Of a stretch of 39,300 nt of DNA, positions 185 to 39,080 are shown piece after piece. The notes under the pieces were generated by a model that was given only the letters and a program-made list of their open reading frames with translations, did not search any database and had not been told where the DNA came from. The translations under genes and the position numbers were made by a program. Position 1 is the first letter of the stretch; each line of letters begins with the position of its first letter. This stretch comes from an uncultured Eubacteriales bacterium. Its GTDB lineage: Bacteria; Bacillota; Sulfobacillia; DYIH01; JBBIPI01. The DNA is taken from positions 1-39,300 of the forward strand of contig CAYXQP010000004.1 in NCBI GenBank assembly GCA_964467515.1, in the 5' to 3' direction.

Positions 185-259
185 GGGGACGTAGCTCAGG
201 GGGAGAGCGCCTGCCTTGCAAGCAGGAGGGCGGCGGTTCGAATCCGCTCGTCTCCACCA
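185..259 (+). tRNA. tRNA-Ala(TGC)
   Basis: Acceptor stem GGGGACG/CGTCTCC with G3:U70, TAGCTCAG D-arm, anticodon TGC at 217-219, GTTCGAATC T-loop, encoded CCA. Confidence 0.97.
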
Positions 260-321
260 GGGTGGACCTTGGCAAGTGAATAGGTGGGGAAGTCGCTGGT
301 TTTCACGGGGCGGCCTAGCGG

Positions 322-3338
<3,017 letters not shown>

Positions 3339-3425
3339 TCGGGGCCGTCTCGTGGAAATTGGCGATTTCCCTTGGGTGCGAGCGCGGCTTGTGCCGGGGT
3401 GGCTGGGCCGCGCTGTGCGGGAGTT

Positions 3426-3546
<121 letters not shown>

Positions 3547-23936: not shown

Positions 23937-25193
23937 GTGGCGGCCATCCTGGTGCGGGGGGGCAGACCTCTCGAGGGGGAGGTCACGGTGCAGACGGCCA
24001 AGAACGCCATGCTGCCCGTCCTGGCCGCCACCATCCTCGCGGGCGGGGAGTGCGTCCTCCGGCGCGTGCCGCCCCTCTACGACGTCCACGTAATGTGCCA
24101 GCTCCTTCTGCGCCTGGGCGTCCAGGTCCGCCTCCGCGAACCGGGCACCCTGCACGTCACCCCCGCCGAGACCCTCTTTTACGAGACGCCCCATGAGCTG
24201 GTGCGCCGGATGCGCGCTTCCGTGCTGGTGATGGGGCCCCTTTTGGCCAGGGTCGGCCGCGCCAGGGTGTCCCTCCCCGGAGGCTGCGCCATCGGCAACC
24301 GACCCGTGGACCTGCACGTGCGCGGCCTGGAGGCCATGGGCGCCAGGTTCTCCGTCCGCTACGGCTTCATAGAGGCCGAGGCTGACGCGCTCAAGGGCGC
24401 CAGGGTCTACCTGGACTATCCCAGCGTGACCGCCACCGAGAACGTCATGATGGCGGCCACCCTGGCCGAGGGCACCACCATCATCGAGAACGCTGCCGGC
24501 GAGCCGGAGGTGGTGGACTTGGCGGACTTCCTGCGGGGGATGGGAGCCCGCATCGCCGGCGCGGGGAGCCGGGTCATCGAGGTCGAAGGAGTAGCGGCGC
24601 TGGGGGGGACGGAGCACACCTGCATTCCCGACCGCATCGAGGCCGGCACCTACCTCCTGGCCGGAGCCGTCTCGGGCGGCCACGTGGTCGTCAAGGGGGC
24701 GGTCCCCCATCACCTGACCCCCCTCCTGGCCAAGCTGGAGGAGGCAGGGGCCGCCGTAACGGTGGGACCCGGCACCGTCAGCGTGCGCGGACCCTCGCGC
24801 CCGCGGGCCACCGACGTCAAGACCCTTCCTTACCCGGGGTTCCCGAGCGACCTGCAGGCACCCATGATGGCCTTCCTGGCGGTGGCGGAAGGTATCAGCA
24901 TCTTCACGGAGACCGTTTTCGACAACGGTTTCCTCCATGTGGAGGAACTCAAGCGGATGGGCGCCGACATACGGGTGGAGGGTGCCACGGCCGTCGTGCG
25001 GGGCGTGGAGGCATTGACGGGGGCGCCCGTCCGGGCGACGGACCTGCGGGCGGGGGCGGCCCTGGTCCTGGCGGGACTGCGGGCCCAGGGCGAGACGCGG
25101 GTCGGCGGCCTCGCCCACCTGGACCGTGGTTATGTCAACCTGGTGGGCAAGATGGCCTCCCTGGGCGCCGACATCAGGCGGGTGGAAGACTGA
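23937..25193 (+). CDS. murA: UDP-N-acetylglucosamine 1-carboxyvinyltransferase (divergent)
   Basis: [19 protein letters not shown] (catalytic Cys loop), [31 protein letters not shown]. Confidence 0.95.
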
Positions 25194-25260
25194 GCCTCTG
25201 TCCTGAGCCCCGAGGGCATACCCATGTTTTCAGCGACCGCTCAGACAGGGTGGTGGCCGG

Positions 25261-26268
25261 TTGAGGAGGCGCGCGCTGACGCTGCTGGCGGTCATCCTGC
25301 TGGTCCTGGTCGGAATCCCGGTGGCGGTGGTGCGGCGCGGCGGGGAGCGGGGGCGCTGGCCTGCGCGCGCGGGTGCCCCCACCGCCATGGCCGTCACCCC
25401 CGGTTTTCCCGAGGTGAGCCTCTACGACTCCGCCACCGGGAAGGTGCTCCGCCTTCCCTTGGAGGAGTACGTGGCCGGCGTGGTGGCGGCGGAGATGCCG
25501 GCCTCCTTTCACCCCGAGGCCCTCAAGGCCCAGGCCGTGGCGGCGCGGACCTACGCCGTCCTCCATGTCCGCGCCTTCGGGGGTGAGGGGTGCCGTTCCC
25601 ACCCCGAGGCCGACCTCTGCTCCGATCCCCGGGAAGGGCAGGCCTGGATGCTCGTGGATCGACTCCGCCGTCAGTGGGGGCGGCAGTTCGAGACGAACTG
25701 GTCCCGGGTGAGGGAGGCCGTCGCCGCCACGCGGGGGCTCATCGCGGTGTTCCGCAACCGGCCCATCGAGGCCGTCTATCACGCGGCCTCGGGGGGCGTG
25801 ACCGAGGACGCCGTGGCCGTGTGGGGCCGGGCGGTGCCGTACCTGAGGAGCGTGTCCTCCCCCTTTGAGGCCGGGACGCGCCATGACCGGGTGGCGGTGA
25901 CCATGACGGTGGCCGAGGCGGCGCGCCGGACAGGCGTGTCTCTCGCCTCCCTGCGGCGCACGACGGCCGCGGGCGTGGCGCCCGTGGCGGTGGCGGCCCG
26001 GACGGCCTCCGGCCGCGTGGCCGTCCTGCGCGTGGGTGACAGGAGGCTGACGGGTGAGGAAGCCCGTGCCGCTCTCGGTCTCCGCTCCACCCTCTTCACG
26101 GTGCGGGTGAGCGGCGACGCGCTCGTCGTCGAGAGCAGGGGTTACGGCCACGGCGTCGGGCTCAGCCAGTACGGGGCCGACGGACTCGCCCGGCGCGGCT
26201 ACGACTTCCGGCGCATCCTGGCTCACTTCTACCAGGGCACGACCGTGCGGCCCCTCTTCTACGAGTGA
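25261..26268 (+). CDS. spoIID: Stage II sporulation protein D (lytic transglycosylase)
   Basis: N-terminal TM anchor, LEEYVAGVVAAEM, EALKAQAVAARTY, GYGHGVGLSQYGA; murA-spoIID synteny. Confidence 0.95.
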   Translation: MRRRALTLLAVILLVLVGIPVAVVRRGGERGRWPARAGAPTAMAVTPGFPEVSLYDSATGKVLRLPLEEYVAGVVAAEMPASFHPEALKAQAVAARTYAVLHVRAFGGEGCRSHPEADLCSDPREGQAWMLVDRLRRQWGRQFETNWSRVREAVAATRGLIAVFRNRPIEAVYHAASGGVTEDAVAVWGRAVPYLRSVSSPFEAGTRHDRVAVTMTVAEAARRTGVSLASLRRTTAAGVAPVAVAARTASGRVAVLRVGDRRLTGEEARAALGLRSTLFTVRVSGDALVVESRGYGHGVGLSQYGADGLARRGYDFRRILAHFYQGTTVRPLFYE

Positions 26269-26381
26269 CGGCGCCGCCGCCCCGGTTTCCCTCCCGCCGC
26301 CTCCGAGCTAGTAAACGTAACGAGTCGCCTCTGCCGGTCCGATTGGAACACATGTCCCCCATGCGATTCTGGGTAAACACG

Positions 26382-26410
26382 GCATTATTCTGACGCCTGG
26401 TCATATAGAT
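26382..26410 (+). promoter_or_regulatory. Putative sigmaE promoter for spoIIID
   Basis: GCATTATT-N12-CATATAGAT resembles the mother-cell sigmaE consensus; spoIIID is sigmaE-dependent in Bacillus and Clostridium. Confidence 0.5.
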
Positions 26411-26444
26411 TGGGCAAACGCCCGGGCCGAAGGGGGACGTGGTC

Positions 26445-26726
26445 ATGAGGGACCACATCTGGAACAGGGTTCTGGAAGTGGGCCGCTACATAGCCCGGAC
26501 GCGGGCCACCGTGCGGGACGCGGCCCGCGTCTTCGGCGTGAGCAAGAGCACCGTTCACAAGGACGTGACCGAACGGCTGCCCCGGCTCAACAAGGAGCTG
26601 GCGGACACGGTGAAGCACGTGCTGGAGTACAACAAGTCGGAACGGCACCTGCGAGGGGGGGAGGCGACGAAGCGCAAGTACCTGGGCGGCCAGCAACCGG
26701 CGGTGTCGGGCAAGGTCACGGAATAG
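26445..26726 (+). CDS. spoIIID: Sporulation transcription regulator SpoIIID
   Basis: TVRDAARVFGVSKSTVHKDVTERL HTH and RHLRGGEATKRKY. Confidence 0.98.
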   Translation: MRDHIWNRVLEVGRYIARTRATVRDAARVFGVSKSTVHKDVTERLPRLNKELADTVKHVLEYNKSERHLRGGEATKRKYLGGQQPAVSGKVTE

Positions 26727-26819
26727 GAACGGGATTTCTCTCTCTCCTGGCAGGTTTCTGGCACTTCGTGTCGAAATCGAGATGCGGCGGAGGACACGGA
26801 GGGGGAGAGGAGAAAGGGG

Positions 26820-27830
26820 TTGTTCAACCTCAACCACGACATCGGCGTCGACCTGGGGACGGCTAACACCCTCGTTTTCGCGCGCAGCCGGGGCATCGTC
26901 ATCCGGGAGCCCTCGGTGGTGGCCCTGGACCAGGAGACGGGCAAGGTCCTGGCCGTGGGCCATGAGGCGCGGCGGATGCTGGGTCGCACCCCCGGCAACA
27001 TAGTGGCCTTGCGACCCCTGCGAGACGGGGTGATAGCCCACTACGACGCCACCGAGGTCATGCTGCGCCACTTTCTGGGGCGGGTCCTCGGGAGGTACAG
27101 CGTCATCCGGCCCAGGGTCATGGTCTGCGTCCCCTCGGGCATCACCAGCGTGGAGCAGAGAGCGGTGCTGGAGGCGGCCCAGGTGGCCGGCGCCCGCCGC
27201 ACCTACCTCATCGAGGAGCCCCTGGCGGCGGCGCTGGGCGCGGGCCTGGACATCAGCGAGGCCCGCGGTTCCATGGTGGTGGACATAGGGGGCGGCACGG
27301 TGGACATCGCCGTCCTGTCCTTGGGCGGCATCGTGGTGAGCGCTTCCCTCAAAGCGGGGGGAGACAGGTTCGACGAGGCCATCATCCGTTACATGAAAAA
27401 GGAGCACAACCTGGCGGTCGGCGAGCGTTCGGCCGAGGAGATCAAGGTTGCCATCGGCACCGTGGACCCCGAGTCTCCCGTCCGCCGGACCGAGGTGAGG
27501 GGGCGCGACCTGATCACGGGGCTTCCCCGCACGGTGAACATCTCCTCGGAGGAGGTGTGCCGGGCGGTGGAGGAGGTCACCACGGCCATCGTGGACGGCG
27601 TGCGGGCCGTCCTCGACCGGACGCCGCCCGAGCTGGCCGCCGACATCCTCGAGAGGGGCATCGTGCTCACCGGCGGGGGCGCCCTCCTGGACGGCATGGA
27701 CCGGATCCTCTCCCGCCACACCGACGTGCCCGTCATAGTGGCGGAGGACCCCCTGAGCTGCGTGGTCCTCGGTGCGGGCAAGGCCCTGGAGACCATAGAC
27801 GTCCTGCGTCCCCAACTGCTCAGCAGGTAA
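26820..27830 (+). CDS. mbl: MreB-like protein Mbl
   Basis: DIGVDLGTAN, EPSVVA, RPLRDGVIA, DIGGGT, LTGGGALL; spoIIID-mbl-flhO synteny supports the mbl paralogue. Confidence 0.88.
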   Translation: MFNLNHDIGVDLGTANTLVFARSRGIVIREPSVVALDQETGKVLAVGHEARRMLGRTPGNIVALRPLRDGVIAHYDATEVMLRHFLGRVLGRYSVIRPRVMVCVPSGITSVEQRAVLEAAQVAGARRTYLIEEPLAAALGAGLDISEARGSMVVDIGGGTVDIAVLSLGGIVVSASLKAGGDRFDEAIIRYMKKEHNLAVGERSAEEIKVAIGTVDPESPVRRTEVRGRDLITGLPRTVNISSEEVCRAVEEVTTAIVDGVRAVLDRTPPELAADILERGIVLTGGGALLDGMDRILSRHTDVPVIVAEDPLSCVVLGAGKALETIDVLRPQLLSR

Positions 27831-27930
27831 CCGCTCGCCTTCGCGGGGGGCCCCGGAGCGGCAAGCGGCCCCGGGCGGAACGCCCGCCGCCCGCGGGGTT
27901 CATCCTGTGGGCTTCCCCTCCCCCGGACAA

Positions 27931-27941
27931 TGTGGTATATA
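27931..27941 (+). promoter_or_regulatory. Putative extended -10 promoter for riboswitch-flhO-flhP
   Basis: TGTG-G-TATATA, with TTCCCC 17 bp upstream. Confidence 0.45.
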
Positions 27942-27973
27942 GGGTGAAAGCGGGCCAAGGCCCGCCTCGCAGA

Positions 27974-28070
27974 GGCTCCGACAAGGGCAAACCCGGCGAA
28001 AGCCGGGGGCGCAAAGCCACGGGTCTACGGCTCCCGGTGGGAGCTAGGACGGCCGGGCTGCCGAAGGGCC
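27974..28070 (+). ncRNA. Cyclic di-GMP-I (GEMM) riboswitch aptamer
   Basis: GGGCAAACC-N-GAAA tetraloop-N-GG, GCGCAAAGC, GGGTCTA receptor arm, GCCGGGCTGCCGAA. G20 (27986) and C92 (28061) equivalents are present, and P1 GGCTCCG/CG(AA)GGGCC can form. Confidence 0.93.
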
Positions 28071-28098
28071 GGTGAGCCAGCCTTATCGGATGCGTCCA

Positions 28099-28131
28099 CC
28101 CCGTGCCGGAGCCGGCGCGGGGTTTCTTCTT
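28099..28131 (+). terminator. Riboswitch expression-platform intrinsic terminator
   Basis: 10-bp stem CCCCGTGCCG-GAGC-CGGCGCGGGG then TTTCTTCTT, located before the flhO RBS. Confidence 0.85.
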
Positions 28132-28152
28132 GCCGGAGGGGGGTGGCGGGCA

Positions 28153-28890
28153 GTGCTGCGGGGCATCTACATGGCGGCGGCGGGCATGCTGGCCGAGGAA
28201 GCGCGCCAGGAGGTGGTGGCCAACAACCTGGCCAACGCGGGCACCACCGCCTTCAAGCGCGAGGCGGCCACGGTTCTGGCCCGGGACGGGGTGGAGATGG
28301 AGCGGATCGCCGACGGCGGGGCTGCGCCCATCGGTGAATGGGGAGGGACGGTGGCTCCCGGACCCCATGCCGTTGACCTGCGTCAGGGCGGCTTGCAGCC
28401 GACGGGGCGTCCCCTGGACCTGGCCTTGGTGGGGAGGGGTTTCCTTGCTCTCGAGACACCGGGGGGTGTCCGGTACACCAGGGACGGCTCCCTGCGCGTG
28501 GACCGGGAGGGGTACCTCGTCAACGCGGACGGCCATCGCGTCCTGGGGGAGAGCGGTCCCATTCAGGTGGGGGGCGGCGAGGTGACGGTCTCTTCCGGGG
28601 GGGAGGTCACGGCCGGCGGCCAGGTGCGGGGACGGCTGCGGGTGGTGGACTTCCCGGCCGGCTCTCTCACAAGGGATGGAGGCAATCTCTTTCGCGCTCG
28701 GGACGAGTCCCAGGGGAAGCCGGCGGCGGCCACGGTGCAGACAGGCCACCTGGAGCTGGCCAACGTGCACGTGGTGCAGGAGATGGCGGACCTCATCGCC
28801 GTGATGAGAGCGTACGAGGCCAATCAGAGGTTGATCCGGGCCCAGGACGAGACCCTGGGCCAGCTCGTGAGCGAGGTGGGGAAGGTATGA
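28153..28890 (+). CDS. flhO: Flagellar basal-body rod/hook protein, FlgF/FlhO-like
   Basis: MLRGIYMAAAGM, ANNLAN, TGRPLDLAL.G.GF, YTRDG, LELANV..VQEM..LI...RAYEAN. GTG start at 28153 chosen by homology. Confidence 0.85.
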   Translation: MLRGIYMAAAGMLAEEARQEVVANNLANAGTTAFKREAATVLARDGVEMERIADGGAAPIGEWGGTVAPGPHAVDLRQGGLQPTGRPLDLALVGRGFLALETPGGVRYTRDGSLRVDREGYLVNADGHRVLGESGPIQVGGGEVTVSSGGEVTAGGQVRGRLRVVDFPAGSLTRDGGNLFRARDESQGKPAAATVQTGHLELANVHVVQEMADLIAVMRAYEANQRLIRAQDETLGQLVSEVGKV

Positions 28891-29666
28891 TCCAGTCCCT
28901 CTGGTCGGCGGCCAGCGGCATGGAGGCGCAGCAGCTCAAGGTGGATGCCATCGCCAGCAACCTGGCCAACGCCAGCACGCCCGGATACAAGGCGAGCCGT
29001 GTCACCTTCCAGGACCTCCTCTACCTTGGTGCGGGAGCCGAAGAGGGGGAGGGCCCCCAGGTGGGCACCGGCGTGCGGGTGGCGACGGTACGGCGGGACT
29101 TCGGGCAAGGGGCCTTGGAGGCCACAGGCGCTCCCTGGGACCTGGCCCTGGAGGGGCCGGGCTTCCTGGCCGTGAAGCTGGCCGACGGGCAGCCCGCCTA
29201 CCGCCGCGGCGGCAGTATGCACTTTTCCCCGGTGGGCAATGACAGGCTCCTCCTGGCGGACGAAGCGGGGAACCCTGTCCTGGACGACAGGGGGCAGCCG
29301 GTGGAGATGGCGGCCGCCGATGCCGCGGCCGTGACGGTGGACCCCACCGGCGCCCTCGTGGCGCCGGGCAGCGATGGGCAGCCCCGTCAGGTGGCGAAGC
29401 TGGGGGTTCACGTCTTCGCCAATGCCGAGGGGCTGGCGGCCCTGGGCAACGGCCTTTACCGGGCGACGCCCGCCTCCGGCGAGGCGCGGGCCGCCAAGGC
29501 GGAGGACGGCGTCTCCGTCCGCCAGGGGATGCTGGAGGGCTCCAACGTCCAGGTGGTGCAGGAGATGGTGGGGCTCATCGTGGCCCAGCGGGCCTACGAG
29601 CTGGCGGCCCGGGCCGTCCAGAGCTCGGACCAGATGATGGAGATCGCCAACAACCTGAGGCGCTGA
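28887..29666 (+). CDS. flgG: Flagellar basal-body rod protein, FlgG/FlhP-like
   Basis: MIQSLWSAASGMEAQQ, IASNLAN, QVGTGVR, QGMLEGSNV, AQRAYE, DQMMEIANNL. Confidence 0.88.
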   Translation: MIQSLWSAASGMEAQQLKVDAIASNLANASTPGYKASRVTFQDLLYLGAGAEEGEGPQVGTGVRVATVRRDFGQGALEATGAPWDLALEGPGFLAVKLADGQPAYRRGGSMHFSPVGNDRLLLADEAGNPVLDDRGQPVEMAAADAAAVTVDPTGALVAPGSDGQPRQVAKLGVHVFANAEGLAALGNGLYRATPASGEARAAKAEDGVSVRQGMLEGSNVQVVQEMVGLIVAQRAYELAARAVQSSDQMMEIANNLRR

Positions 29667-29680
29667 CGTGGGGAGGGGGG

Positions 29681-31546
29681 TCACTTGCCAGGGGCCGTGA
29701 GGGCGCCGTCGGCGTCGGGGGCCGTCGGCACCTCCGCCACCCGGACGCGGTTTCGGCCCGCGGCCTTGGCCGCGTAAAGGGCGTCGTCGGCGGCCCTGAT
29801 GAGGGATTGCCGGTTGGAGGCGGCGTCGGGATAGGTGGCCACCCCGGCGCTGAGGGTGATCCCCGTCAGCTTGTGCCCGCCGGGGACATCAATGGCGGCC
29901 GACTCCAACAACTGCCTGATTCTCTCCAGGACCGCCAGGGCGCCGTCGGCATCCGTCTCCGGGAAGATGATGGCTATCTCCTCGCCGCCGTAACGGGCGG
30001 CCAAGTCACTGCTCCGGAGGCTCTCTCTCAGGATGTGGGCCAGCTGTCGCAGCACCTCGTCGCCCACCTGGTGGCCGAAGGTGTCGTTTACCTGCTTGAA
30101 GCGGTCCAGATCCAGCATGGCCAGGGCCAGGCGCGAGCCCGACCGGGAGGCCCGGTTGATCTCCTGGTCCAGCCTCTCCTGGAAGAAGCCGTGGTTGTAC
30201 AGGCCCGTCAGCGGGTCGCGGGTGGCCAGGTCCTGCAGCACCAGGTTGAGGCCGCGGAGGTCGGCGAGGAGGAGGTCCCGCTCCCGCGTGTAGTGGTCCA
30301 GCCGCTTGGCGACGATGGCGGCCACCGTCATCATGGCCGCCGTGGTGAGCCCGTGGCTCGTCACGTGCCAGCCGATGACGGCAGGGCTGAAGCTGGCTCC
30401 CCAGCCGCTGTCGCGGACGAGCTCCAGGGCCGAGAGGACCAGCGTGATGCCGCCCGTGAGGAAAACGCCCTGCAGGCCGAGGACGATGCCGGCGAGCGGT
30501 ATCGGTATCAGGGCCATGGAGAGATAGAGGAGGGCCTTCAACTCGTCCGCCGTTATCATGAGGAAGCTGAGGGATCCGCTGAGAAAGGCGAAGTGAACCA
30601 GGGCCCGCTGGCGGGGATGCCCGGGGCCGACCCGGGGCCAGAGGACGTTGAAGACCGTCAGGGCCCCCATGGTGGCGGCAAGGGAGCGCCACCCGGGGCT
30701 CCGGGCCTCGCCGGTGAAGACGGGGATCAGGGTCAGGACGCAAACGAAGAACCAGGTTATGAACTCGAGATAGGAGTAGTCTATGGGAGCCCCGCCCGGC
30801 TCGGTCGCTTCCAGGTGGCGGGCGGGGGCGGGCTCGCGCCTGAGGCGCAGGATCAGGGGTGCCAGGGCGAGGCTCGCGTAGACGGCCACGCCCGTCCAGA
30901 CCCGCACGAGGGCGAAGTTGGCCGCCAGGGCCGTCAGCACGAGGAAACAGGCAGCGTCGGCCGCCGGTCGCAGGGTCGCGGGCCCGCGGCCGGCCAGGAG
31001 GACGGCCTGCAGGCCGCCCGCCAGGATGGCACCGGCGGCGAAGGGGAGCGGCCCCACGAGGTGGGCGACGGGGTACGCAGCGGGTGGGAAGCGGTGGGGT
31101 AGGAAAAGCAGGAGGAGGCCCAACACCAGGAGAAAGACGGTCAGGACGGCCCGGTGGAGGTCGAGGGGAGGCCGCCAGCCCCTGCTCTCGGCGAAGGCGG
31201 TGTACAGCAGGCCCAGGGCGAGGAGGCCGTAGATCAGCACGCCCGAGGGAACGGAGGTGGAGGCGAAGTTGGCCGCCAGGAGGACAAAGGGGAGAGAGGC
31301 CAGGAGGCGTCCGGGCGCCGAGAAGGGCGGCCGGACCGGCCCGCCCGTCTGGGCCAGCAGGTAGGCTCCCGTCGCCACGGTCAGCGGGGCGAGGAGGTGG
31401 AAGTGCTGGCGGACCAAGGGAGCGTAGAGGGTGGGCGAGAGGGTGCCGCCGGCGATGAAGAAGGCGATGCCCAGGGCGACCTGAGCCAGCCCCGCCGCGA
31501 AGATGAACGGCAAGAGGTCGGCGCCTTTCTGCCTCGCAGTGTCCAC
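29681..31546 (-). CDS. Integral-membrane diguanylate cyclase (GGDEF domain)
   Basis: DPLTGLYN, DLDRFKQVNDTFGHQVGDEVL, RSSD I-site, RYGGEEI; long polytopic N-terminus. GTG start at 31546 follows a GAGGAGG RBS (ORF extends to 31612). Confidence 0.93.
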   Translation of the reverse strand: MDTARQKGADLLPFIFAAGLAQVALGIAFFIAGGTLSPTLYAPLVRQHFHLLAPLTVATGAYLLAQTGGPVRPPFSAPGRLLASLPFVLLAANFASTSVPSGVLIYGLLALGLLYTAFAESRGWRPPLDLHRAVLTVFLLVLGLLLLFLPHRFPPAAYPVAHLVGPLPFAAGAILAGGLQAVLLAGRGPATLRPAADAACFLVLTALAANFALVRVWTGVAVYASLALAPLILRLRREPAPARHLEATEPGGAPIDYSYLEFITWFFVCVLTLIPVFTGEARSPGWRSLAATMGALTVFNVLWPRVGPGHPRQRALVHFAFLSGSLSFLMITADELKALLYLSMALIPIPLAGIVLGLQGVFLTGGITLVLSALELVRDSGWGASFSPAVIGWHVTSHGLTTAAMMTVAAIVAKRLDHYTRERDLLLADLRGLNLVLQDLATRDPLTGLYNHGFFQERLDQEINRASRSGSRLALAMLDLDRFKQVNDTFGHQVGDEVLRQLAHILRESLRSSDLAARYGGEEIAIIFPETDADGALAVLERIRQLLESAAIDVPGGHKLTGITLSAGVATYPDAASNRQSLIRAADDALYAAKAAGRNRVRVAEVPTAPDADGALTAPGK

Positions 31547-31687
31547 GCTGTCCTCCTCGACGGTTGTCCCAGCTCCTGGATCTTGCGACTGATCGAAGCC
31601 GCGGCGCGCCAACCCAGGGCCTTACCTTATTAATCCGTTTCTCCGACGGTTGCCGGAACGTCATGGCGCCCAGGGGGCACCAGACTT

Positions 31688-31696
31688 TGATATTAT
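31688..31696 (+). promoter_or_regulatory. Putative extended -10 promoter for fabZ-thrC-thrB
   Basis: TG-A-TATTAT. Confidence 0.55.
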
Positions 31697-31729
31697 CGTT
31701 GCGGACTCTTGCGAGTAAAGGTGGCCGAC

Positions 31730-32263
31730 TTGGCGGCGGAGGGCGGGGCGCAACCATCTTCGAAGGCGGCGGGCGGGCTCGCGGCGGCGGAGGTCGCCCT
31801 GCTCCTGCCCCACCGCTATCCCTTCCTCCTGGTGGACCGCGTCCTGGAGCTGGAGCCCGGCCGGCGCATCACGGCCGTCAAGAACGTCACCCACAACGAG
31901 CCCTTCTTTCCCGGTCACTTCCCGGGTTATCCCGTGATGCCGGGGGTGCTCATGGTGGAAGCCCTGGCCCAGGCGGCGGCCGTCTGCCTGGCGGCCGGCG
32001 GCGAGGCCGGGCGGCTGGGACTCTTCGCGGGCCTGGACGGCGTGCGCTTCCGGCGGCAGGTCTTTCCCGGCGACACCATCCTCCTGCGGGTCGAGGTGAC
32101 CCGCCGGCGGGGATCCCTGGTGAAAGCCAGCGGCAGAGCCCTGGTGGGAGACCTGGTGGCCGTGGAGGCCGAAGAGCTGAGCTTTGCCCTGGTGGAGCTG
32201 GACCGGCCCGGCGGGCGGCCGGGGGGGCCGCCGGAGACGCGGGTGCGGCCGACCGGGGCCTGA
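31730..32263 (+). CDS. fabZ: 3-hydroxyacyl-ACP dehydratase
   Basis: [13 protein letters not shown] and [20 protein letters not shown]. Start approximate. Confidence 0.97.
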
Positions 32264-32287
32264 CGGCAAAGGGCGGCGGGTGATAGG

Positions 32288-33370
32288 GTGGGCTGGCGCG
32301 GGATACTGCACGAGTTCGGCCAATACCTTCCCCTGGACGGCGAGACGCCCCTCCTCAGCCTCAACGAGGGGGACACGCCCCTGGTGGAGGCGCCGGAGCT
32401 GGCCCGGCGCTCGGGTTGCGATCTGAGGCTTTTCCTCAAGTGCGAGGGCCTCAATCCCACCGGCTCCTTCAAGGACAGGGGCATGGTGCTGGCGGTGGCA
32501 CGGGCGGTGGCCGAGGGTGCGGAGCGGGTGGTGTGCGCCTCCACGGGCAACACCTCGGCTTCGGCGGCGGCCTACGCGGCGCGCGCCGGCCTCCCCTGCC
32601 TGGTCCTGGTGCCGCACGGCAAGGTGGCCCTGGGCAAATTGGCCCAGGCCATCGTGTACGGGGCGCGGGTCGTGGCGGTGGAGGGCAACTTCGACCAGGC
32701 CCTGGCCATGGTGCGGGAGTTGGCGGCCACCCGGCCCGGCACCACCCTGGTCAACTCGGTGAACCCGTATCGCCTCGAGGGGCAGAAGACGGCGGCCTTC
32801 GAGGTCTGCCGCGACCTGGGTGATGCCCCCGACTACCTGGCCATCCCCGTGGGCAACGCCGGCAACATCTCGGCCTACTGGCGCGGCTTCGTCCAGTGGC
32901 ACGAGGCGGGGCGCTGCCGCCGCCGACCCAGGATGCTCGGGTTCCAGGCTGCGGGGGCGGCCCCTCTCGTCTACGGGCGGCCGGTGGAGCGGCCGGAGAC
33001 GGTGGCCACGGCCATCCGCATCGGGCAGCCGGTGAACGGCGAACGGGCGCGGACTGCGGTCCGGGAGTCGGGGGGGCTCTTCGCCGCGGTGACCGACAGC
33101 GAGATCCTGGCCGCCTATCACCTGCTGGCCGAGGCGGAGGGCATCTTCGCCGAGCCGGCTTCGGCCGCCTCGGTGGCCGGCGTGCTCAAGCTGGCCGGCC
33201 AAGGATACTTCCCGCGGGGAGCCACCGTGGTGGCGGTGCTGACGGGCAACGGTCTCAAGGATCCGGACACGGCCATGGCGACGGGCGCCGAGCCCGTCAT
33301 CCTCCCCGCCCGGTTGGACGCCCTGGAGGCGCTCCTCTCCGGCTCCTCCGTCGCAGCGGTGCCGGTATGA
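32288..33370 (+). CDS. thrC: Threonine synthase
   Basis: EGLNPTGSFKDRG (PLP Lys), CASTGNTSASAAAY, VNSVNPYR, PVGNAGNI, EPASAAS. Confidence 0.97.
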   Translation: MGWRGILHEFGQYLPLDGETPLLSLNEGDTPLVEAPELARRSGCDLRLFLKCEGLNPTGSFKDRGMVLAVARAVAEGAERVVCASTGNTSASAAAYAARAGLPCLVLVPHGKVALGKLAQAIVYGARVVAVEGNFDQALAMVRELAATRPGTTLVNSVNPYRLEGQKTAAFEVCRDLGDAPDYLAIPVGNAGNISAYWRGFVQWHEAGRCRRRPRMLGFQAAGAAPLVYGRPVERPETVATAIRIGQPVNGERARTAVRESGGLFAAVTDSEILAAYHLLAEAEGIFAEPASAASVAGVLKLAGQGYFPRGATVVAVLTGNGLKDPDTAMATGAEPVILPARLDALEALLSGSSVAAVPV

Positions 33371-38736: not shown

Positions 38737-39080
38737 GGGGGTGAACAGGTTCGACGACGGCCGGATGGACGGGGGAAGCGAGCCGAGGGCGTCTCGTTAA
38801 ACCGCGTCGCACGATAAGTGCCAACGAAGAGCTCGCTCTGGCTGCCTGATTAGCGCAGCCACGTCCGCCGGGACCGCTCCCGCCGGTTCCGGATAGGGCG
38901 CCAGCCAGCGGGATGGCCCCGGTGCCGCGGCCCTAGGTCCCGGGGCGAGACGCGAGGGCTGGCCGGCGGCGGTCCCGCCTCCGGGGACGCCGTCCGGCGA
39001 GAGGAAAGCGGGGGCTACGCTCGTAGATGCCTCCGTTGGTCCGCCGGCGGACGAGGGTGCGACTCCCTCCACCTCCACCA
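38737..39080 (+). ncRNA. ssrA: tmRNA; tag (A)ANEELALAA encoded at 38820-38849
   Basis: 5' GGGGGTG pairs with 3' CACCTCC-ACCA with G3:U; TTCGAC in the 5' domain; ATAAGT resume context; tag ends ALAA-stop; follows smpB. Confidence 0.97.

Follow-up and report, generated by a model that had tools for sequence, protein, structure and literature searches.

A predicted class I c-di-GMP riboswitch in the leader of the distal rod genes flhO and flhP of an uncultured, GC-rich spore-former

Introduction

Class I c-di-GMP riboswitches that precede flagellar genes and act by transcription termination are already established. [quoted passage not shown] Three residues characterize the ligand pocket of this class, namely G20, which pairs with Gα of the ligand, A47, which intercalates between the ligand bases, and C92, the Watson-Crick partner of Gβ; aptamers of the 3′,3′-cGAMP type have A at position 20 (PMC6140456). 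Residues are numbered here as in Vc2 (PMC6140456).

[quoted passage not shown] In this species flhO is among the SigD-controlled genes and is affected by Rho-limited antisense RNA (PMC5540618). We searched the literature for a c-di-GMP riboswitch ahead of flgF/flgG or flhO and met with no report, although one may exist. We know of no riboswitch reported at flhO-flhP of B. subtilis.

Here we describe an element in the 39,300-nt stretch of DNA that was analysed as a whole (the window). By model match and pocket residues it is a canonical class I c-di-GMP (GEMM-I) aptamer, and it probably forms part of a transcriptional OFF switch that acts by termination in the flhO-flhP leader, with capture of the terminator by the 5′ strand of helix P1 the most likely arrangement in the window and its closest relatives (the window clade). 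New here are the lineage, the gene context (the distal rod pair alone, at the mbl locus) and perhaps a shift from one antiterminator strand to another among members of a single lineage.

Gene context and host

The host is an uncultured, very GC-rich spore-former, and the aptamer is 71% GC. GTDB species genomes contain no close relative (best FlhO identity 57%). The window sequence was matched in metagenomic DNA runs, from the subsurface and hot springs only, and in no RNA-seq run. The gene order murA-spoIID-spoIIID-mbl-flhO-flhP-(GGDEF)-fabZ-thrC extends across 23937-33370 of the window and mirrors that of B. subtilis. The genes are as follows.

23937-25193: murA, upstream gene
25261-26268: spoIID, upstream gene
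26439-26726: spoIIID, upstream gene
26820-27830: MreB/Mbl homologue (mbl), upstream gene
28153-28890, plus strand: flhO, FlgF-like distal rod protein, GTG start, match to NCBIfam TIGR02490 flgF
28887-29666, plus strand: flhP, FlgG-like distal rod protein, match to TIGR03506 (219 bits)
29681-31612, minus strand: membrane protein with a C-terminal GGDEF domain (TIGR00254, 192.8 bits), convergent to flhP
beyond the GGDEF gene: fabZ and thrC

The two genes downstream of the leader had been taken for flhO and flhP homologues, and the profile matches agree, that of flhO lying just above the threshold of its family (178.6 bits, cut-off 178.5). The GTG start of flhO was picked by the conserved N-terminus MLRGIY, and flhP overlaps flhO by 4 nt. 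The GGDEF protein has GGEEI as its active-site motif and an RSSD (RxxD-type) site five residues upstream. Its gene is also found in locus L161 (5531-7411), and is not at this position in L163-L167, L172 and L173. In the relatives L164-L166 and L172-L173, an M23 peptidase gene is inserted between spoIID and spoIIID. Elsewhere in the window, the Rfam scan located the end of an rRNA operon at 185-3544, comprising a tRNA with anticodon UGC (185-256; Ala, as read from the alignment), 23S rRNA (323-3339) and 5S rRNA (3428-3544), as well as a tmRNA at 38737-39080.

We gathered flhO loci from genomes, metagenomes and Logan contigs (172 fetched, plus the window). A 33-sequence FlhO alignment (A1) was too diverse for the locus search, and a closer set (A2) was used. 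Among these loci, the switch was detected before flhO in seven, including the window, by regular expression, Rfam and a custom model (R1). The loci cited below by number have the following FlhO identities to the window.

L162: 93%
L161 (same as L081): 84%
L163: 70%
L169: 56% (nearest to L002)
L173: 54%
L002: 52%
L172: 50%

Loci L164-L167, with FlhO identities of 55-58%, have only 42-84 nt between mbl and flhO; the element therefore occurs patchily, within a small uncultured group of Firmicutes.

The aptamer

The leader between mbl and flhO contains the following features, all on the plus strand.

27913-27941: promoter-like element, TTCCCC (27913-18), 17-nt spacer, TG (27933-34) and TATATA (27936-41) (custom scan)
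27950-27965: hairpin GCGGGCC-AA-GGCCCGC where the leader is predicted to begin (all minimum free energy, MFE, folds; conserved in L162 and L161)
27974-27980: P1 5′ strand GGCUCCG, also the 5′ strand of candidate antiterminator AT1 (sequence, Rfam alignment)
27981-27986: junction J1/2, ACAAGG, with A27984 as A18 and G27986 as G20, which pairs with ligand Gα (Rfam alignment)
27987-28012: P2, GC followed by CCCGGC/GCCGGG, with GAAA tetraloop at 27998-28001 and C28010 as C44 (Rfam alignment)
28013: equivalent of A47 (Rfam alignment)
28015-28059: P3 with distal hairpin (28029-28045) and receptor-like internal loop, G28052 as G83 (Rfam alignment)
28056-28063: strand of candidate antiterminator AT3, GGCUGCCG, made up of the P3 base, C92 and the first two P1 3′ bases; pairs with 28107-13, G28060 bulged (constrained folding, homologues)
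28061: equivalent of C92 (Rfam alignment; PMC6140456)
28062-28070: P1 3′ strand, CG-AA-GGGCC (sequence, homologue alignment)
28071-28097: linker, conserved in the closest relatives only
28098-28123: intrinsic terminator hairpin, 11 bp (9 G-C), loop GAGC (terminator scan)
28100-28113: terminator 5′ arm and loop, 3′ strand of AT1 or AT3, core CGGAGCC at 28107-13 (folding models)
28123-28131: U-tract, UUUCUUCUU (sequence, terminator scan)
28135-28146: Shine-Dalgarno region, GGAGGGGGGTGG (sequence; conserved in homologues)

The sole riboswitch match in the Rfam scan of the whole window is to RF03167, c-di-GMP-I-GGC (clan CL00126), at 27977-28066 on the plus strand over the full length of the model, with a score of 75.3 bits (gathering score 59, E=3e-16). 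For each riboswitch match, every Rfam scan suppressed one further overlapping clan match, unnamed, that was above its own threshold. RF03167 is the top-scoring clan model for the window and five to six homologues; the 5′-truncated L169 alone is assigned to RF01051 (72.8 bits, gathering score 35). The original prediction had named RF01051 as the model to scan with: the class I clan aptamer is present, the best model is a different one, and the pocket is canonical. The consensus lines of the two models read GACGCGAAgCc (RF03167) and GACGCAAAgCc (RF01051), and the window reads GGCGCAAAGCC. Its equivalent of A47 is A28013, the canonical A of RF01051 where the RF03167 consensus has G, and the same canonical A stands in this column in all the homologues. 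We know of no ligand for the c-di-GMP-I-GGC variant, which goes back to Weinberg et al. 2017. Judging by the consensus lines of both models, its name presumably stands for G20/G47/C92.

By alignment to the model the pocket is complete. G27986 corresponds to G20, A28013 to A47 and C28061 to C92, so that G20 and C92 are in place as predicted; A27984 (A18) and the pair C28010/G28052 (C44-G83) are present as well. We thus did not assign the element to the GGC-variant class, whose defining G at the A47 column is absent even though its model scores best, or to the 3′,3′-cGAMP (GEMM-Ib) class, which needs A at position 20 where the window has G27986 (PMC6140456). Since RF03167 outscores RF01051 on sequences with the canonical A47, automatic annotation will label such riboswitches "GGC variants", and the scoring of these two models is a likely source of mislabelling.

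The predicted helices are well kept among the seven homologous sequences. The 5′ strand of P1 had been expected to pair alternatively with 28062-28070, and this pairing is found, with an AA bulge and one G.U pair (88% of cells paired). P2 is invariant in all eight of its pairs; P3 has 96% of cells paired and two pairs changed on both sides, with a distal stem that varies in length and sequence while its pairing is kept. RNAalifold recovers P2 and P3, and with P1 added 95.7% of cells are paired vs 26-50% with slid partners. Covariation within the aptamer is sparse because the seven sequences are close. The GAAA tetraloop (27998-28001) does not vary among these sequences, and P3 offers an internal loop that resembles a receptor, UAC/AG at 28026-28 and 28046-47, into which it may dock. 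The hairpin at 27950-27965 could possibly serve as a 5′ stabiliser.

Four metagenome runs show the P2 core of the aptamer (27982-28017) at 7-25 times the contig depth of its flanks, and many unrelated metagenome contigs match 27977-28027 only. It would seem that other class I c-di-GMP aptamers with almost the same core are numerous in these communities, and perhaps in the window genome too.

Terminator and promoter

The terminator scan of 27500-28400 returned one site, vs a mean of 0.3 in shuffled sequences. The G+C-rich hairpin at 28098-28123 (-21.8 kcal/mol) is directly followed by TTTCTTCTT (the tail is given as TTCTTCTTGC by the scan), the arrangement of an intrinsic (Rho-independent) terminator. 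All seven loci, the window among them, have it, and between clades several of its pairs have changed on both sides: CCCCGCGCCG/CGGCGCGGGG becomes CCCCUGCUGGC/GCCGGCAGGGG in L002 and GCCCGCUGGC/GCCAGCGGGC in L173. Strain variation was also seen within the hairpin. T28104, which forms a G.U pair in the window, is C in all relatives and in other metagenome strains, and G28122T at the base of the stem occurs in one abundant strain (run X5).

A stock sigma-70 scan of 27500-28400 found no promoter. The element picked out by the custom scan, TTCCCC-N17-TGnTATATA, is conserved in the window clade and resembles an extended -10 promoter of the sigma-A type; TGTGnTAT is invariant in five homologues. From its position the leader is predicted to start near 27948, just 5′ of the hairpin at 27950-65. 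The original prediction had pointed to sigmaD control of flhO-flhP, which is described for B. subtilis (PMC5540618) and does not seem to carry over to the window, where the best match to TAAA-N14-16-GCCGATAT is only 7/12 and the sigma-A-like element is found instead; a sigma-D promoter was accordingly rejected as a candidate here. In L172, a sigma-D-like TAGA-N14-GCCGATAA (10/12) lies directly upstream of its aptamer, at 2704-2729.

Pairing of the P1 5′ strand with the terminator

The original prediction centred on GGCTCCG (27974-27980) as the exact reverse complement of CGGAGCC (28107-28113), and this can be read directly from the sequence. CGGAGCC was further said to span the loop and both arms of the terminator, which is literally true, if marginally: it covers the two top bases of the 5′ arm (28107-08), the 4-nt loop (28109-12) and a single base of the 3′ arm (28113). 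Dinucleotide shuffling puts the chance of a perfect terminator complement of at least 7 nt at 49% for the upstream 132 nt as a whole, and at 4% for one given slot of 15 nt, of which the P1 5′ strand is an example.

Folding models are consistent with AT1 as a transient structure. In MFE folds of the growing chain, 27974-80 pairs with 28107-13 at transcript ends 28113-28119, and the terminator is formed from 28122 onward. The AT1 helix is extended in these folds by C27982-G28105, A27983-U28104 and GGG27985-87/CCC28100-02. Constrained energies at ends 28113/28116 are -73.4/-74.6 kcal/mol for AT1 with P2 and P3 enforced, -59.9/-62.8 kcal/mol for the P1-closed aptamer and -61.6/-64.0 kcal/mol for AT3. 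In the window, L162, L161 and L163, the P1 5′ region is the partner of the terminator top with a probability of 0.54-0.86, and the AT1 complement is 9 nt long in L163 despite an unrelated linker. At full length, the terminator state is favoured over AT1 even without P1 (-88.3 vs -82.9 in constrained folding), and read-through would therefore need kinetic trapping.

AT1 shows no covariation because both of its strands are invariant in four close relatives. Strain variants in metagenome contigs include none within 27974-80 or 28107-13, and hence add no covariation. In L002, the P1 5′ strand is CGCCCCG with no matching change in the terminator, and the 5′-strand complementarity is lost.

An imperfect helix of 14 pairs can also form between 27972-27988 (the P1 5′ strand and J1/2, including G20) and the linker at 28080-28096. 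It is the MFE structure at transcript ends 28090-28106 and again after the terminator has formed. The window and L162 have this helix, L161 has part of it, and L163 and L002 lack it; in the window and L162 it competes for the 5′ strand of AT1 at a stage when the terminator does not yet exist.

Two other partners of the terminator were considered and rejected. CGGCTCC at 28028-34 in distal P3 is a second perfect 7-mer complement, to the terminator top at 28108-14 (8-9 nt in L163 and L161). A stable local hairpin sequesters this strand, constrained folding places its state about 10 kcal/mol above AT1, and the complementarity probably follows from the recurrence of the GGCUCC motif. As for the linker, which would give an ON design, its pairing with the terminator 5′ arm is weak in the window (-7.4), and it is not conserved.

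Pairing of the aptamer 3′ strand across relatives

The alternative to AT1 that survives best keeps the same OFF switch and takes AT3 (28056-63 and the P1 3′ strand) as the working antiterminator, which would be the conventional design; the P1 5′ match would then arise from the likeness of GGCU-CCG to GGCUGCCG. The window retains seven AT3 pairs with one bulge, as GGCT(G)CCG at 28056-63 against 28107-13, and this segment is invariant, including C92 and the start of the P1 3′ strand. AT3 is the stronger pairing in the distant homologues: -20.0 vs -11.5 kcal/mol for AT1 in L002, where the perfect 8-mer GGCUGCCG/CGGCAGCC is extended to 12 bp, and -23.2 (14 bp) vs -9.3 kcal/mol in L173. L172 leans the same way and is ambiguous (-16.7 vs -12.9 kcal/mol), and L169 has an AT3 of -16.2 kcal/mol and, being 5′-truncated, no AT1 value. 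Furthermore, a compensatory change from G-C in L002 to A-U in L169 (GGCUGCCG/CGGCAGCC vs GGCUACCG/CGGUGGCU) supports AT3. In the window clade, by contrast, AT3 is the weaker of the two (-15.0 to -17.6 vs -20.4 to -21.9 kcal/mol). It must open four G-C-rich pairs at the base of P3, its state is about equal to the P1-closed aptamer (-61.6 vs -59.9), and its pairing probability is about zero in truncated transcripts. On this balance we consider it rather unlikely that AT3 is the working antiterminator of the window.

The comparative evidence favours the 3′-strand design as ancestral. For the window clade we lean to the P1 5′ strand on modelled energetic and kinetic grounds, because AT1 needs no opening of P3. 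As an expression platform, in which the antiterminator excludes both P1 and the terminator, AT1 and AT3 both fit on paper. The "readable" mechanism of the original prediction thus holds in so far as AT1 is the preferred partner in the window clade by folding; it is not uniquely readable, given AT3 in the distant homologues.

A broader reading of these differences is conceivable, and we put it forward as a speculation that is more doubtful than the switch itself. The antiterminator partner may have moved within one lineage that kept the aptamer, terminator and operon, from the 3′ strand in L002, L169, L173 and probably L172 to the P1 5′ strand and G20 junction in the window clade, the cause being a shortening of the terminator loop by one base (CGGCAGCC to CGGAGCC). 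The free ligand-contacting junction would then itself act as antiterminator, and c-di-GMP would gate the distal-rod step with a diguanylate cyclase gene next door.

Proposed mechanism and its alternatives

During transcription of the leader, P2 and P3 would fold first. Binding of c-di-GMP, through contacts with G27986, A28013 and C28061, would lock P1 (27974-80/28062-70), the terminator at 28098-28123 would form before UUUCUUCUU, and transcription would stop 5′ of flhO. Without ligand P1 would be weak, and a P1-dependent strand could capture the terminator 5′ arm and loop (28100-28113) before the 3′ arm emerges, so that RNA polymerase reads through. The likeliest capturing strand in the window clade is predicted to be the P1 5′ strand with J1/2 (27974-27987; 7+2+3 pairs). 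The ancestral-looking alternative captor would be the aptamer 3′ strand, 28056-63 and the following bases. All credible antiterminators pair one strand of P1 with the terminator top, and a ligand-locked P1 should therefore favour termination. The OFF direction is most likely correct and robust to the choice of strand, as both AT1 and AT3 give OFF logic, and it is in line with Cd1 and the other functional class I switches of C. difficile (PMC6366702).

It is improbable, and somewhat more so than a role for AT3, that the element is not ligand-regulated as an OFF switch, whether as a degenerate or constitutively terminating leader or as an ON switch. The full-length thermodynamic minimum contains the terminator with or without P1, and the U-tract of L163 is poor (UCUUGUUCUU). 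Moreover, of the 16 c-di-GMP riboswitches predicted in C. difficile only 11 are functional, and class I also includes ON switches such as Bc2 (PMC6366702). Against this, the aptamer core, pocket, P1 and terminator are kept down to about 50% FlhO identity while linkers and flanks diverge completely. There is also no obvious ON architecture, because the terminator does not overlap the aptamer and the pairing of the linker with the terminator 5′ arm is weak.

Least probable of all is a different ligand (that of the GGC variant, or 3′,3′-cGAMP), for which RF03167 outscoring the other clan members for the window and at least five homologues would speak, and against which stand the canonical A, in all sequences, at the sole pocket column that separates the RF03167 and RF01051 consensuses, the G of the window at the position where cGAMP-type aptamers have A (PMC6140456), and the assignment of L169 to RF01051.

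Comparison with known systems

If the proposed switch operates as described, c-di-GMP would block motility in the window lineage at the distal rod genes and not at the master operon. This would be an economical control point, as flhO and flhP gate hook completion, FlgM export and sigma-D activity in B. subtilis (PMC5540618), and it would put a riboswitch class that is itself well known into a gene context new to it. If the strand reading is also true, the seven related leaders show an expression platform being rewired with aptamer and terminator fixed.

The RF03167 family provides the top covariance model for the window aptamer, but differs from it in the consensus G at the A47 position. Vc2 of Vibrio cholerae, the structural reference for RF01051, shares with the window the three helices, the P2 GAAA tetraloop, G20/A47/C92 and C44-G83, whereas the sequences of distal P3 and P1 differ. 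Vc2 probably acts on translation and is not known to have a terminator.

With B. subtilis, the window shares the flhO-flhP pair directly after mbl, in the order murA-spoIID-spoIIID-mbl-flhO-flhP-fabZ. Unlike B. subtilis, where flhO is under SigD, the window has a riboswitch and no sigma-D-like promoter was seen in it.

Common to Cd1 and the window element are a class I aptamer, an intrinsic terminator behind it and a place before flagellar structural genes of a Firmicute, and the OFF logic proposed for the latter is that of Cd1. Cd1 controls a 23-kb early flagellar operon that includes sigD, while the window element precedes only two distal rod genes at mbl-flhO-flhP. The window element further differs from Cd1 in its uncultured and GC-rich host, and in a putative antiterminator that may use the P1 5′ strand.
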